DNA of 21,778 nt from a virus. This document shows positions 3,598 through 10,386 of this stretch, piece after piece. Position numbers and translations under genes: made by a program. The notes beneath the pieces were generated by a model. It worked only from the letters and a program-made list of their open reading frames with translations. It was not told where the DNA came from and ran no database searches. The DNA lies in the UHGV virus genome UHGV-0133264; one strand, 5' to 3'. The stretch's first letter is position 1. Every line of letters starts with the position of its first letter.

Positions 3598-4188
<591 letters not shown>

Positions 4189-4373: not shown

Positions 4374-5186
4374 CTATTTTAATTCTATGTAATTTTTAAA
4401 TTCTCCCTCATATTTATACATGATGCTATCAAATCCTTCCATTACATCAACGAATTGTTGTGAACATTCCGGCTTCCAAGGCGTACACTTACGAACCATA
4501 TCCATTTTTTTCTTATCCTTCGTTGTATCGACTAAGGATAGGTACCCTATAAAATTCATCATCTGAACAGGATCTTGATTTGTGAATATATATTTGACGT
4601 TTTGCTTAGTAGGCGAAAAAGAATCAAAAGCAGGGAACATATATTCACCAGAAAAAGAGAGTGCAGCATCAATGACGTCTGTTGCAGGAGTGCAGTTGCT
4701 CAGAATTGGCACTAAGCTAAAATTAGCACCTGAGCACACTGCATATATATCATCCCCTTTTTTTAGTTTTAACAGAGAGTCTTGCTTTGAATCCAATATT
4801 TTCAATTTGATATAATTTAGTGGCGTTGCATTTTCCCCTGGAGTAAATAACTCTACAATTGGTTTATTATTCACCATTCTTATGGATTTTATTTCACCAT
4901 ACACAATTGGAATTGTGTTCCATTTTTCCTGAGCAGCAAATTCATTATCTTTAAAATCATTAACCAACTCAGATGGCAAATGATAACCAAATTGATTGTT
5001 CATTGCTTTCGAAGCAAATCCAGACAAATAGAATGCCCTTACTAAATCATAATCTTTCTTTGAGGTAGAAAGCCAATCTGGCAATTTATTATCAGCTATC
5101 GCGCTTCCAGCAAAAATAGCACAACAAAATGTTATTACATTAAATAATTTCATTTTCCATTCACTCATTAATCGGTTTAAACTCAC
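4374..5186 (-). CDS. Secreted protein with N-terminal signal peptide; Sim-like superinfection-exclusion candidate (P1 simC position)
   Basis: 270-aa ORF. Internal Met 12 (about 5153) begins MKLFNVITFCCAIFAGSAIA, a classic signal peptide with an AxA cleavage site. AT-rich coding region with many Lys and Asn codons. Confidence 0.55.
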   Translation of the reverse strand: MSLNRLMSEWKMKLFNVITFCCAIFAGSAIADNKLPDWLSTSKKDYDLVRAFYLSGFASKAMNNQFGYHLPSELVNDFKDNEFAAQEKWNTIPIVYGEIKSIRMVNNKPIVELFTPGENATPLNYIKLKILDSKQDSLLKLKKGDDIYAVCSGANFSLVPILSNCTPATDVIDAALSFSGEYMFPAFDSFSPTKQNVKYIFTNQDPVQMMNFIGYLSLVDTTKDKKKMDMVRKCTPWKPECSQQFVDVMEGFDSIMYKYEGEFKNYIELK

Positions 5187-5496
5187 TAATTAATTCACCA
5201 AGACTATTTGGGTATGCTTTATAAATAACATACTCCGAAGAGCCATCTGAATATTGGTAAACCCCATAACAGACCAGTTTATTTATTCCTTTCTGAATAG
5301 TTTTTTGATTATAAGAATCAACCACTGTTATTCCATATGACGATAATATTTCGTTATATTCTTCAATAAGAGCTTTTCTTGTTTCCACTGAATTACAATC
5401 TACCTTCGAAAAGTCAACTTCATCAGCAAAAACATTAAATGTTAAAAAGGAAAGCACTAAAAACAAACGAATCAGCATAAATCCACTCCTACGCAT
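5161..5496 (-). CDS. Small secreted protein with signal peptide (P1 simB position)
   Basis: ORF of 111 aa. The likely start is Met 7 (about 5478), preceded by AGGAG, giving MLIRLFLVLSFLTFNVFA as signal peptide. Confidence 0.5.
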   Translation of the reverse strand: MRRSGFMLIRLFLVLSFLTFNVFADEVDFSKVDCNSVETRKALIEEYNEILSSYGITVVDSYNQKTIQKGINKLVCYGVYQYSDGSSEYVIYKAYPNSLGELISEFKPINE

Positions 5497-5499
5497 GGA

Positions 5500-5631
5500 T
5501 TAATAGTCATTGATCGCAAAGGCGTAAACTTGCCAAAGGTATTTCGTATAATCGGTACAAATCTCCTTTACGCTTGATGCTGCATTAACAGTCCCAGCCA
5601 TAAATAATAACGATAGTAATAGTTTTCTCAT
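5500..5631 (-). CDS. Unlisted 43-aa secreted peptide (MRKLLLSLLFMAGTVNAASSVKEICTDYTKYLWQVYAFAINDY); P1 simA position
   Basis: Found by reading the minus strand; too short for the ORF track. AGGTGAG Shine-Dalgarno about 7 nt upstream of the ATG. Signal peptide with VNA-A cleavage site. Its stop lies 3 nt before the next gene's upstream ATG. Confidence 0.4.
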   Translation of the reverse strand: MRKLLLSLLFMAGTVNAASSVKEICTDYTKYLWQVYAFAINDY

Positions 5632-5727
5632 TATAAACTCACCTGCCTTATCACCCATTTAGGGTACATATTTTCGCCTTTAAAAAAAAGAGGTTATTAG
5701 ATCCAACTGTGTATTTATTAAGCAGAT

Positions 5728-5744
5728 AATGCTCTAATAAATTT
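5728..5744 (+). promoter_or_regulatory. C1 repressor operator (Op51-type), 16/17 match to ATTGCTCTAATAAATTT
   Basis: AATGCTCTAATAAATTT seen directly. Sits between the divergent sim-like operon and the c4-icd-ant operon, about 40 bp upstream of a consensus promoter. Confidence 0.7.
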
Positions 5745-5782
5745 GTATTTTTAAGTCACGAATGCTATCTTTTCGCATCATA

Positions 5783-5811
5783 TTGACCTTTTAATCGTTC
5801 AGGCTTATAGT
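5783..5811 (+). promoter_or_regulatory. Sigma-70 promoter for the c4-icd-ant operon (P51-type)
   Basis: TTGACC, 17-nt spacer, TATAGT. Confidence 0.6.
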
Positions 5812-5924
5812 TCCGCCGTCGTAGCAAATTCTGCGACCGGGTTTAGCAGCCTGAATGATTGTGCGGACAGCCGCAGATATCCGATATTGCGGTATTTTTG
5901 TGTCCGTAAAACCGCGTTACGCCC

Positions 5925-6002
5925 AAATTATGGTGGGGCGTGATGGGGAGGCTTCGGCCTGCTGGTTTCACAATCGCCAGTCTGCTAACCCCGTCACGTC
6001 CT
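5925..6002 (+). ncRNA. c4: c4-type antisense RNA, processed from the leader of the icd-ant transcript
   Basis: Long-range helix CGTGATGGGG (about 5938-5947) pairs with CCCCGTCACG (about 5990-5999), enclosing a GGCTTCGGCC hairpin. The element contains CTGCTAAC, complementary to two GTTTAGCAGC copies at about 5841-5850 and 6010-6019, the latter just upstream of the icd Shine-Dalgarno. Boundaries are approximate. Confidence 0.5.
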
Positions 6003-6058
6003 GCCACCTGTTTAGCAGCGGGTAGCAGGTTGTTAAACCTGATTGTGAGGCCGTAACT

Positions 6059-6280
6059 ATGGTTAATGCCAATCCTTGCGCACGCCCAGAATTCATCTGG
6101 CGTTTCTATTCCTGTAAAAAACACCACTATCACTTCGTTATCGCAGCAACTGAAGACGAAGCACGCTCTCAATTGCCTGATGGCCCCTGCATTTTTACTG
6201 CCCGTTTTTCAACTAACTCGCGCAATTCACTTAGTTACTGGAGCCTCCCCTTCTCTGCCGACGTTCAGGGGGGTTTATGA
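6059..6280 (+). CDS. icd: Icd-like small protein (interference with cell division), translationally coupled to ant
   Basis: 73-aa ORF with GTGAGG Shine-Dalgarno. Its TGA stop overlaps the ant ATG in an ATGA arrangement. Lies immediately downstream of the c4 target repeat. Confidence 0.55.
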   Translation: MVNANPCARPEFIWRFYSCKKHHYHFVIAATEDEARSQLPDGPCIFTARFSTNSRNSLSYWSLPFSADVQGGL

Positions 6281-7323
6281 AAAAACCTCTCGTCACCCGT
6301 AATGACATAGCCGAAGCGATCGCCCTGCATACTGCCTGTATACCGACACGGGAGATCCCCGGCGCAATTGCCAACTATTTCATGATAACCAGGCGTTTTT
6401 ATACCCGAACAGATAAGGCTGTGATCAACAGGCTACTGATAGCCGAGATCAGGGATTATTTGATTGAACAAGGACGTCTACGTTACGCAACGGTGGCAGC
6501 AGAAATGAGAAAGGAGGCACATAGAATGACCAGTAATAATTTGAATGTTAAAAAACCAGCACCTGTTGCTTCAGCAACGCCAGCACCAGCCGTGAATGTC
6601 ATCCCCACCACCGGAGACACAATCGACAGCCTGACACTGTTAAAGATGGTCAATGAGGCACGGAAATTATGTAGCGAAAAACCAGTTCGCAACAATGATT
6701 TCATTGCCAGAGTTAAGGATGAGCTTGATGGGGAGGGTTACGAAATCTTCGTAACCCCTATGGATAAGAAAAAAGGTGGAGCGGATCAGGTAGTTATAGT
6801 AATGACATACAAACAAGCCCTGCGCGTTGCTGCTCGCGAATCGAAAGCGGTCCGCCGTTCGCTGATCGACAAACTGGAAGAATTGCAGCAGGCAAACTCC
6901 CCTACCCCATCGATCCCCCAAACATTACCGGAAGCACTGCGCCTGGCTGCCGAGTTAGCAGAACAGAAAATGCAGCTGGAACAACAGCTGGTGGCCGCAG
7001 CCCCTAAAGTCGATTTTGCCGACCGGGTATCAGTGGCTAATGGAATCCTGATCGGGAACTTTGCAAAGGTCGTTGGACTGAAGCAAAACGCCCTTTTCTC
7101 ATGGTTGCGCCAGAACGGCATTCTCATGGCTTTTGGTGCGCGCAAAAACGTACCGCGCCAACAGTACATCAACGCCGGGTATTTCACGGTGAAAGAAGTG
7201 GTGCTGGATGATGAAAATGGCTACCAGATACGGCTGACGCCCCAATTAACGGGTAAAGGCCAGCAGTGGTTGACTCGCAAGCTACTTGATGCTGGTTTGT
7301 TAAAACCAGTAGCAATAGGTTAA
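6277..7323 (+). CDS. ant: Antirepressor Ant1 (348 aa), with in-frame internal start for Ant2 at about 6526
   Basis: The C-terminal ~110 aa (LPEALRLAAELAEQK...APKVDFADRV...GKGQQWLTRKLLDAGLL) form an Ant/KilA C-terminal domain, about 60% identical to the C-terminus of the downstream kilA. A strong internal AAGGAGG sits 8 nt before Met 84 (MTSNNLNV...). Position after c4-icd matches the P1 immI operon. Confidence 0.75.
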   Translation: MKKPLVTRNDIAEAIALHTACIPTREIPGAIANYFMITRRFYTRTDKAVINRLLIAEIRDYLIEQGRLRYATVAAEMRKEAHRMTSNNLNVKKPAPVASATPAPAVNVIPTTGDTIDSLTLLKMVNEARKLCSEKPVRNNDFIARVKDELDGEGYEIFVTPMDKKKGGADQVVIVMTYKQALRVAARESKAVRRSLIDKLEELQQANSPTPSIPQTLPEALRLAAELAEQKMQLEQQLVAAAPKVDFADRVSVANGILIGNFAKVVGLKQNALFSWLRQNGILMAFGARKNVPRQQYINAGYFTVKEVVLDDENGYQIRLTPQLTGKGQQWLTRKLLDAGLLKPVAIG

Positions 7324-7486: not shown

Positions 7487-8286
7487 ATGCAACAAACATT
7501 CAATGCGGATATGAATATATCAAACCTTCATCAAAATGTCGATCCTTCAACCACTCTACCTGTTATTTGTGGTGTTGAAATTACGACCGACCGCGCTGGC
7601 CGTTACAACCTTAATGCTCTACACAGAGCGAGCGGACTCGGTGCCCATAAAGCGCCAGCTCAATGGCTAAGAACGCTGTCAGCCAAACAGCTCATTGAAG
7701 AGCTTGAAAAAGAAACTATGCAGAATTGCATAGTTTCGTTCGAAGGTCGTGGCGGCGGCACTTTTGCCCATGAATTGCTCGCTGTGGAGTACGCAGGTTG
7801 GATTTCTCCCGCGTTTCGGCTGAAGGTAAACCAGACATTTATCGACTATCGAGCCGGAAGATTACAACCAGCTATTCCGCAGAGTCTCCCTGAAGCACTC
7901 CGTTTGGCAGCCGACCTGGCAGAGCAAAAGCAACGCCTGGAGCAAAAAATGCTTATGGATGCCCCTAAAGTCGAATTCGCCGAACGCGTTGCTACCGCAG
8001 CGGGGTTCTAATCGGCAACTATGCCAAAGTGCTCGGCCTGGGCCAAAACTATCTCTTCACCTGGTTGCGTGATAACGGAATTCTGATCGCAACCGGTGAA
8101 CGCAGGAACGTCCCCAAACAAGAATACATATCCCGTGGGTATTTCACCCTTAAAGAAACCGTGATCGATACAAGCAATGGAAGCAGGATTTCTTTCACGA
8201 CTCGTATAACCGGCAAAGGTCAGCAGTGGCTTATGAAGCGATTGCTTGATGCTGGTGTGCTGGTGCCTATCGCGGCGACGCGCTAA
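7487..8286 (+). pseudogene. kilA: kilA (KilA-N domain plus Ant/KilA C-terminal domain) interrupted by a 1-nt frameshift near 8005
   Basis: ORF 7487-8011 (174 aa, KilA-N-like) and ORF 8029-8286 (85 aa, C-terminal domain) are colinear with the intact ant paralogue. Around 8001-8016 the sequence CGGGGTTCTAATCGGC reads F-stop, while the +2 frame reads LIGNYAKVLGLGQN, matching ILIGNFAKVVGLKQN in ant. The span is 800 nt; one more base restores a 266-aa protein. Confidence 0.7.
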
Positions 8287-9457: not shown

Positions 9458-9639
9458 TACACCCGCTGCGGGTGCTTGAGGCTATCTGCTTCAGGCATTA
9501 CCCGACAAGCAGATAGAAAAAAGCCCCAGATAACATTACGCGTCCTGCAAGACGCTTAACATTAATCTGAGGCCATATCTATGCTTAGCATACGTAGATT
9601 AGCCCTCTCCCCTTTTAAGGAGCAAGGAATTTTTTACTG

Positions 9640-10272
9640 CTATGCCGCCTTTCCAGTTATGGATTCAGCGACAAGAACAACCCCATGCTTACTTCGATCT
9701 GGGTGTTCACTCCATATCTCGGATTCAGGAATACTTTCCCCGTCATAGCAAACACGTTCGCCGTCAAACGGGTAATACTGAGCGGCATCGGTGTCGAGGA
9801 TAAACACTTTTAGCTCGGAAGAGCGACGGGCGATGTGTTGCCAAAGAGCTTTTCCACCTTCGTATTGCTCATTATCACTGAGCAAAACAACACCAGCTTT
9901 TGAGGCTACGGTTTCGTAAACAAAAGTAGCTAAACCGACATCCCGGACGGTTCCATCAACCACGATACCTTCAATCTGGGCAACATCGCTATCCTCCCAG
10001 AACTTCCTTACCAGTACGCCTTCAAGCTGCGGGCGACGTTGAAGTTCAAGAGTAGCGACAACCTTATGGCGCATATCACCATCGATAACAGAAGGCGCAG
10101 CCTCTATTACAGCTGCAAATGGGGTTTTGGAATCCCATATAACCTGGTAAAGCACACCCTGGATGGTAACTCCGTCCAGGATCGAAAATCGACGAGCGAC
10201 AGTACCCGGGGAGTACGACATTGGAATCACAGCCATTTTAGAGTCCCCCTTTAACAGTACAGGCACAAACAT
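9640..10272 (-). CDS. Hypothetical protein (possible rlfB/pmgF position)
   Basis: 210-aa ORF. The likely start is Met 13 (about 10236), preceded by AAGGGGGA. Monocistronic: promoter-like AT-rich region upstream and the terminator of the neighbouring operon beyond it. Confidence 0.5.
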   Translation of the reverse strand: MFVPVLLKGDSKMAVIPMSYSPGTVARRFSILDGVTIQGVLYQVIWDSKTPFAAVIEAAPSVIDGDMRHKVVATLELQRRPQLEGVLVRKFWEDSDVAQIEGIVVDGTVRDVGLATFVYETVASKAGVVLLSDNEQYEGGKALWQHIARRSSELKVFILDTDAAQYYPFDGERVCYDGESIPESEIWSEHPDRSKHGVVLVAESITGKAA

Positions 10273-10363
10273 CTACCTCAATAATTGTAGTTTATTAGAA
10301 CATTAATAATCTAACATAAAACTCCAGACAATGTTATCGATGCATTTTTATATAAAAAGGTTA

Positions 10364-10386
10364 TAAAAAAAGCTCCCGAAGGAGCT
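10364..10386 (-). terminator. Rho-independent terminator ending the late head/sheath/tube operon
   Basis: On the minus strand: stem AGCTCC, loop TTCG, stem GGAGCT, followed by TTTTTTT. Lies about 20 bp after the stop of the 169-aa gene. Confidence 0.7.

Follow-up and report, generated by a model that had tools for sequence, protein, structure and literature searches.

UHGV-0133264 carries the P7 allele of the P1/P7 c4 antisense RNA, with six recognition elements that co-vary strictly among relatives

Upstream of icd and ant in the virus genome UHGV-0133264 (21,778 nt, the whole of which is referred to here as the window), a short sequence occurs twice, and a complement of it lies between the two copies. 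A first-pass annotation, made from the sequence alone, proposed that this arrangement specifies a c4-like antisense RNA, processed from a transcript that also contains its target twice, and that it blocks translation of icd and, by coupling, of ant, the upstream target possibly acting as a decoy. Two questions arise at this locus: which regulatory system it belongs to, and what the upstream copy of the target is for. With regard to the first, we conclude with a probability of about 95% that positions 5730-6075 are the immI immunity control region of a P1/P7-type phage-plasmid, in the allele of P7 specificity. The c4/icd/ant circuit of P1 and P7 has been characterised since 1990 as one working through a processed, trans-acting antisense RNA, and the immI switch described here is this already known one, in the form of the P7 allele of the P1/P7 c4 antisense RNA. 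As a discovery it carries little weight, curated Rfam families being available and the copy being identical to that of P7. The region allows the window to be recognized as a P1/P7-type phage-plasmid whose immI specificity is of the P7 type, and the result corrects database records in which c4 is still called a protein.

The repeat itself supplied the first set of recognition elements. The 21.8-kb window contains exact copies of GTTTAGCAGC at two places only, 5841-5850 and 6010-6019, both on the plus strand (as are all features named below), which bears out the approximate positions of the first-pass annotation. The sequence CTGCTAAC lies at 5982-5989, and seven of its eight bases (CTGCTAA, 5982-5988) complement the repeat core TTAGCAG, with a mismatch on either side of this 7-nt complement. 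The core of the first repeat copy is the a1 target site (TTAGCAG, 5843-5849), homologous to the 'putative a1 target site' of P1, the core of the second is the a2 target site (TTAGCAG, 6012-6018), homologous to P1 a2, and CTGCTAA is the a' recognition element (5982-5988). While this triple had been seen at the outset, a second one had been missed, made up of the b1 target site GATTGTG (5857-5863; homologous to the annotated b1 of P1), the b' recognition element CACAATC (5969-5975) and the b2 target site GATTGTGA (6041-6048; homologous to P1 b2). Within b2, GATTGTG occupies 6041-6047, and the 8 nt obtained with its extension are complementary to positions 5968-5975 of C4. Both a' and b' were assigned from complementarity, the fold and the relatives.

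The icd Shine-Dalgarno sequence, GAGG, is located at 6047-6050 and is overlapped by b2. The downstream repeat had been described as sitting just 5' of this Shine-Dalgarno, and this had to be revised: the a2 copy ends 28 nt before GAGG, and the element that overlaps it is b2. Along the DNA the elements follow the order a1, b1, b', a', a2, b2, and the 7-nt gap between a1 and b1 mirrors the 6-nt gap between b' and a'. Further plus-strand copies of the a 7-mer (at 4077 and 6955) and of the b 7-mer (at 1825) have no partner nearby; thus, the window contains only two bipartite sites.

The sequence between these two sites matched the Rfam C4 family (RF01695) at 5926-6011 with 69.6 bits (gathering score, 45; E = 5.8e-12) and over the full length of the model (positions 1-87 of 87). 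With its ends taken over from the c4 misc_RNA annotated in P1 and in P7, the mature C4 antisense RNA, of P7 specificity, spans 5932-6008 (77 nt). Folding of this segment gave two hairpins on a closing stem of 17 bp, with a minimum free energy (MFE) of -44.9 kcal/mol (z = -5.7) and none of 200 shuffles as stable, and its MFE structure is also the centroid and agrees with the Rfam consensus structure line. Just two long stretches stay unpaired, namely the 9-nt loop of hairpin 2 (5967-5975), in which b' lies, and the 7 nt that join hairpin 2 to the closing stem (5982-5988) and coincide exactly with a'. The first-pass annotation had put an 8-nt complement into the loop of a tRNA-like helix; the strongly folded 77-nt RNA is indeed there, but the complement comprises 7 nt and occupies the multiloop, not a hairpin loop. 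Citron & Schuster reportedly recognized the c4 repressors as antisense RNAs in 1990 and C4 as a processed 77-base RNA in 1992. The word 'tRNA-like' fits the literature, in which the C4 precursor is described as having a tRNA-like structure and serving as a substrate of RNase P (work of Hartmann et al. 1995 related in a passage of PMC3858429), and full repression of ant requires C4, according to a passage of PMC8198154.

The upstream target site lies in a leader with an Rfam family of its own. In a scan of the whole window, RF03163 ('a1, b1 targets of C4 antisense RNA') matched 5805-5857 with 55.5 bits (gathering score, 46.7; E = 9e-12), again over the full length of the model (positions 1-53 of 53). 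This c4-a1b1 leader motif is a pair of hairpins, the second of which presents a1 in its loop and is followed directly by b1, and local folding reproduced the pair in 11 of 13 relatives. The covariance-model search that had been suggested for the c4 family therefore ended with two families, RF01695 and RF03163, both above their gathering scores.

Promoter P1c4 (former P51b; 5783-5811; TTGACC, 17-nt spacer, TATAGT) was the sole match of the promoter scan, with 10/12 for the sigma-70 consensus, and it is also annotated in P1. Promoter P2c4 (former P51a; 5743-5771), which lies upstream of it, was placed by transferring the P1 annotation through the alignment and was not picked up by the simple consensus promoter scan. 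The C1 repressor operator (Op51 / Oc4; AATGCTCTAATAAATTT, 5728-5744) overlaps P2c4 and was aligned to the annotated monovalent C1 operator of P1 (AF234173 48140-48156) and P7, and C1 is predicted by this homology to bind there.

On the other side of c4, the list of open reading frames contains icd (6059-6280), which encodes a 73-aa cell-division inhibitor, is the first translated gene of the operon and is annotated in P1, P7 and hundreds of plasmids. It is followed by ant1 (6277-7323; 348 aa), whose start overlaps the icd stop in the sequence ATGA, as the first-pass annotation had noted, and whose product matched the Pfam family ANT/KilAC (PF03374, E = 1.3e-30). An in-frame internal start at 6526 corresponds to ant2, at the +249-nt offset given by the P1 and P7 annotations, and residue 84 of ant1 is Met. 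Promoter region, c4, icd and ant are found in this order. Two separate observations concern the wider surroundings: the kilA of the window carries a frameshift, and there is a truncated hok/sok locus.

The allele was identified by comparison with sequence records. In a three-way alignment of the window, P1 and P7, the region 5730-6075 was 100% identical to phage P7 and differed from P1 at 15 positions of alignment columns 11-356, 13 of which fall in or beside the six a/b elements. By BLAST the region belongs with P1-like phages and phage-plasmids: it was matched by 37 records of phages and about 600 of plasmids, largely from Escherichia and Salmonella, and several of them were 100% identical over 701 nt. 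The C1 operator and the 77-nt c4 misc_RNA are marked at this place in both curated GenBank records, for P1 and for P7. That of P1 goes on to list promoters P2c4 and P1c4 and the sites a1, b1, a2 and b2; a2/b2 bear the note 'repression of translation of icd, ant mRNA', and a1/b1 are given as no more than 'putative'. A search of IMG/VR viral contigs for the C4 scaffold with free a'/b' bases returned 0 matches, and the relatives compared below were taken from plasmid and phage collections. We found no sequence features that contradict the immI explanation. The function of the UHGV-0133264 copy is predicted from its 100% identity to P7, and the copy should have P7 immunity specificity, as its recognition bases are those of P7.

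The following mechanism is proposed from the elements, the fold, the family membership and the P7 identity observed above, together with the strict co-variation of all six elements described below. A single transcript from the C1-controlled promoters (5743-5811) would comprise the a1/b1 leader, c4, a2/b2, icd and ant1/ant2. The tRNA-like c4 segment would be cut out of it to give a stable 77-nt RNA (5932-6008), the 5' end of which is made by RNase P in P1 and P7. The b' element in the loop of hairpin 2 and the a' element in the multiloop joint would then pair with b2 and a2 on the operon mRNA. Ribosomes would be kept off icd, since b2 overlaps its Shine-Dalgarno, and the Ant anti-repressor would not be made, since ant1 is coupled to icd translation through the ATGA overlap. 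With Ant off, C1 repression, and hence lysogeny, would be maintained, and the bases of a and b would set the immunity specificity (P1 versus P7 heteroimmunity). The a1/b1 copy would pair with C4 as well, its likeliest role, put forward tentatively, being to titrate or compete for C4. The processing, the translational block, the coupling and the immunity specificity are known from the P1 and P7 literature; in these phages, the block of icd translation also makes transcription terminate prematurely ahead of ant, and heteroimmunity is determined by the bases of a and b. The work on the P1 mechanism is said to be that of Citron & Schuster 1990 and 1992, Biere et al. 1992, Riedel et al. 1993, Heinrich et al. 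1994 and Hartmann et al. 1995.

To characterize the pairings in relatives, we used an alignment of 13 sequences, namely the window, P1, D6 and ten plasmid loci taken down the identity ranking (97.5% to 87.9%). The recognition elements were hypervariable, with variation in 24 of their 42 columns versus 37 of 244 columns elsewhere, and the scaffold was nearly invariant. There were two a alleles (TTAGCAG and TTGACAG) and five b alleles (GATTGTG, GTTAGTG, ACTTACG, GTACATG and ACGAATG), which form seven combinations. In 13 of 13 sequences, a1 equalled a2 and the reverse complement of a', and b1 equalled b2 and the reverse complement of b'. The first-pass annotation had named loss of the complementarity in relatives as a ground for refutation; all six elements match throughout, and its reading as a c4-like antisense RNA with two targets in the same transcript is borne out by this co-variation as well as by the Rfam matches and the identity to P7.

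The pairings of C4 with a1/b1 and with a2/b2 gave the same figures: 100% of the cells were paired, and 8 of 14 pairs were changed on both sides. Two positions were compensatory in a1:a' and 6 of 7 in b1:b', while controls in slid registers were paired at only 26-52%. Given the order of the elements, a and b alleles cannot be reassorted by a single crossover, from which we infer selection on each pairing. The upstream and the downstream sites track the recognition bases of C4 equally strictly through all seven combinations. Duplex energies of whole C4 with its targets were set aside, since RNAduplex ignores the internal fold of C4.

The second question, that of the upstream site, can be approached from the same data. 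Since a1/b1 follow a'/b' no less closely than a2/b2 do, selection must act on the pairing of the upstream sites with C4. It is possible, though we would not give it even odds, that a1/b1 act as a decoy or competitor, which pairs with C4 in cis on the precursor or in trans, leaves less C4 for a2/b2 and in this way sets a threshold for ant expression as operon transcription goes up. The equally strict co-variation (13/13; 8/14 compensatory pairs), the mirrored a1-b1 and b'-a' gaps (7 and 6 nt) and the display of a1 in the hairpin loop of a conserved motif are consistent with such a role. The proposal is also recorded in a passage of Weinberg et al. 2010 (PMC2864571, Additional file 1), according to which a 1990 paper proposed that a1/b1 compete for C4 and free a2/b2; the idea is therefore not new. 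However, co-variation tells that the pairing matters and not what its purpose is, and precursor folding or processing, feedback on c4 synthesis and protection of the leader fit the data equally well. Moreover, b1 is imperfect at 6 of 7 positions in a distant homologue, locus L004 (described below), and the annotation of a1/b1 in P1 goes no further than 'putative'. A decoy at a1/b1 would refine the immI explanation and would not replace it. With a1/b1 clearly under selection, their role is worth a direct experiment.

A different role for a1 is suggested by the spacer between a2 and b2. Local folds place a hairpin there (6026-6041; CAGG-TTGTTAAA-CCTG), for which a role can only be conjectured, with an a'-like loop, TTGTTAA (6030-6036). 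Compared with a' (CTGCTAA), both C residues are replaced by T in this loop, so it can pair with either a allele through G-U. The spacer might accordingly work as a switch in cis, in which TTGTTAA pairs either with a1 (16 bp, 5838-5853/6026-6041) or with a2 (9 bp), thereby exposing or hiding the C4 targets and the icd ribosome-binding site in the unprocessed transcript. The 16-bp helix is present in both the MFE structure and the centroid of the 258-nt precursor, its 16 uninterrupted pairs are nominally significant (5 of 2000 shuffles had runs of at least 16), G-U pairs allow it to form with both a alleles, and the alternative a2:spacer pairing is the MFE structure in two relatives.

Against this, the helix showed no true compensatory change, only a 9-bp core of it persists in D6-type alleles, and none was seen by eye in L004. 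Its duplex energy is unremarkable, as 114 of 1000 shuffles were as good, and, since each partner is a small hairpin and their G+C stems resemble each other, the cross-complementarity is partly automatic. The conservation is better explained by a plain local spacer hairpin, which is the MFE structure in 11 of 13 relatives by local folding and was read by eye as apparently present in L004 also, and the observation was made post hoc. Taken together, we consider pairing of the spacer as a cis switch unlikely. The broader claim, that the spacer is a degenerate, allele-independent mimic of a' that adds a cis switch to immI, and one undescribed as far as could be checked, appears very doubtful to us. 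If true, the switch would give a1 a role beyond titrating C4.

A protein product of c4 has been annotated repeatedly, and it can be judged from the same relatives. An ATG-started ORF of 56 aa (5855-6025) does span the region and might encode a small repressor protein, and X15639, RCS47 and CP043746 carry a CDS ('c4: CDS') or a 'transcriptional regulator' here. However, 6 of 13 relatives have ATA where the start codon should be, P1-type sequences are put out of frame by a 1-nt deletion and a stop shortens the ORF to 39 aa in two relatives; the variable positions obey the pairing rules of the RNA, and a published title calls the c4 repressors antisense RNAs. As the ORF is not conserved, we reject a protein-coding c4.

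Equally hard to credit is that the repeat and its complement are fortuitous, or that the structured element is a tRNA gene or a remnant of one, for, although a single direct/reverse-complement/direct triple of 7-mers arose in 68 of 5000 shuffles and 10-mers with at most one mismatch are not rare (4 matches versus 1.6 expected in the window), two separate triples were produced by only 1 of 5000 dinucleotide-preserving shuffles of the 281-nt stretch, the co-variation is perfect across seven allele combinations and the Rfam E-values are about 1e-11. A tRNA gene was also looked for directly: with ARAGORN, neither a tRNA nor a tmRNA turned up in the window, and 'tRNA-like' holds in the sense of an RNase P substrate only.

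The immI reading of the region can finally be set beside the known systems. The closest is immI of P7 (AF503408 / NC_050152), in which the stretch identical to 5730-6075 takes in the operator, the promoters, a1, b1, C4, a2, b2 and the start of icd. A 701-nt query reaching through icd into the start of ant1 was 99.1% identical to P7, and the gene order c4-icd-ant1/2-kilA-repL is the same. The two differ upstream of 5730, where P7 has upf50.0 and upf50.5 and the window has P1-type simC/simB/simA, and in kilA, which is frameshifted in the window. The prototype, immI of P1 (RF01695 and RF03163), has the same architecture, fold, promoters and operator at 95.7% identity, whereas all six recognition elements differ, a' and b' having changed to match their targets. 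The a sites read TTGACAG in P1 and TTAGCAG in the window, and the b sites GTTAGTG in P1 and GATTGTG in the window. This is the classical heteroimmunity difference between P1 and P7.

Other relatives share this organization. In D6, the C4 scaffold scored 69.6 bits and the c4-a1b1 motif 55.9 bits, and D6 together with other P1-like plasmid prophages obeys the same three-way matching rule and carries the b alleles ACTTACG, GTACATG and ACGAATG, in company with either a allele; the D6 types differ in the a2-b2 spacer and in the anti-repressor gene downstream. Still further away is L004 ('ECO95 1-6-1'), an isrK/C4 locus of an integrated lambdoid prophage, not a plasmid prophage. It has a gene other than icd downstream, and its leader, a match to Rfam isrK (RF01394), closes with a terminator-like hairpin and a T run. 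Even there, a leader hairpin displays a1 in its loop, a C4-family RNA scores 80.7 bits, and b2 (CACAAAG) adjoins the Shine-Dalgarno of the downstream gene and is matched by b' (CTTTGTG), b1 alone being imperfect. With a1 and a2 both reading TTGACAG and a' reading CTGTCAA, the lambdoid locus embodies the same logic in other bases.

The recognition alleles of immI, the control region of the P1/P7-type immunity operon, are modular among P1-like plasmids. When window positions 5800-6080 were aligned with 12 relatives (P1, D6, and ten plasmid loci), two alleles of the a site and five of the b site were found in seven combinations among only 13 loci, with the mixed types P7-a plus P1-b and P7-a plus D6-b being present. 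Since this many a/b combinations occur in so small a set, the immunity specificities in nature probably number well above the classical P1/P7 pair.

A mosaic junction, at which P1-type sequence gives way to sequence identical to P7, was located within 4374-5730. Upstream of immI, the superimmunity genes simC/simB/simA (4374-5658, minus strand) are of the P1 type, while P7 carries upf50.0 and upf50.5 in their place; identity with P7 begins at 5730, at the C1 operator, and runs onward.

In a distant C4 homologue at a lambdoid prophage locus (ECO95 1-6-1 contig), the counterpart of the c4-a1b1 leader (RF03163), positions 514-593 of that locus, matched Rfam isrK (RF01394) instead, with 53.8 bits, and the a1 site TTGACAG lies in the same hairpin loop as in c4-a1b1. 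The match and the shared placement of a1 therefore suggest that isrK and c4-a1b1 are homologous leaders, although isrK is not placed in the C4 clan of Rfam.

A long-range helix of 16 uninterrupted bp was predicted between the a1 hairpin (5838-5853) and the a2-b2 spacer (6026-6041) of the window. Uninterrupted runs of at least 16 bp were obtained in 5 of 2000 shuffles, and the helix is only partially conserved. TTGTTAA in the spacer loop resembles a', the element of C4 RNA complementary to the a sites, and G-U pairing would allow it to pair with both a alleles. As an alternative, this a'-like sequence could pair locally with a2 (6010-6018 with 6030-6038).

Farther downstream, sok of the hok/sok type I toxin-antitoxin system (RF01794) was matched at 9470-9644 with 90.7 bits, and no Hok-like ORF follows the match. 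In the nearest plasmid, hokD comes directly after sok; its homology with the window ends at 9608 and picks up again at 10366, such that ca. 757 bp (9609-10365) stand in place of the plasmid sequence. This segment holds a 210-aa ORF (9640-10272, minus strand) for which no Pfam match was found. The stretch 9470-10365 appears to be a hok/sok locus that was truncated and had a cassette exchanged.

In the window, kilA (7487-8286) is split near 7999 into an ORF at 7487-8011 and a second, out-of-frame one at 8029-8286, and one C is missing from ACCGCCAGC relative to P1 kilA. The split reflects either a real pseudogene of this host-killing gene or a sequencing error. In close relatives, the KilAC protein is annotated as intact (266 aa). 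The window contains a single C4 match at the Rfam gathering threshold; many P1-like plasmids, across several plasmid records, match the c4-icd region at two to three separate places.
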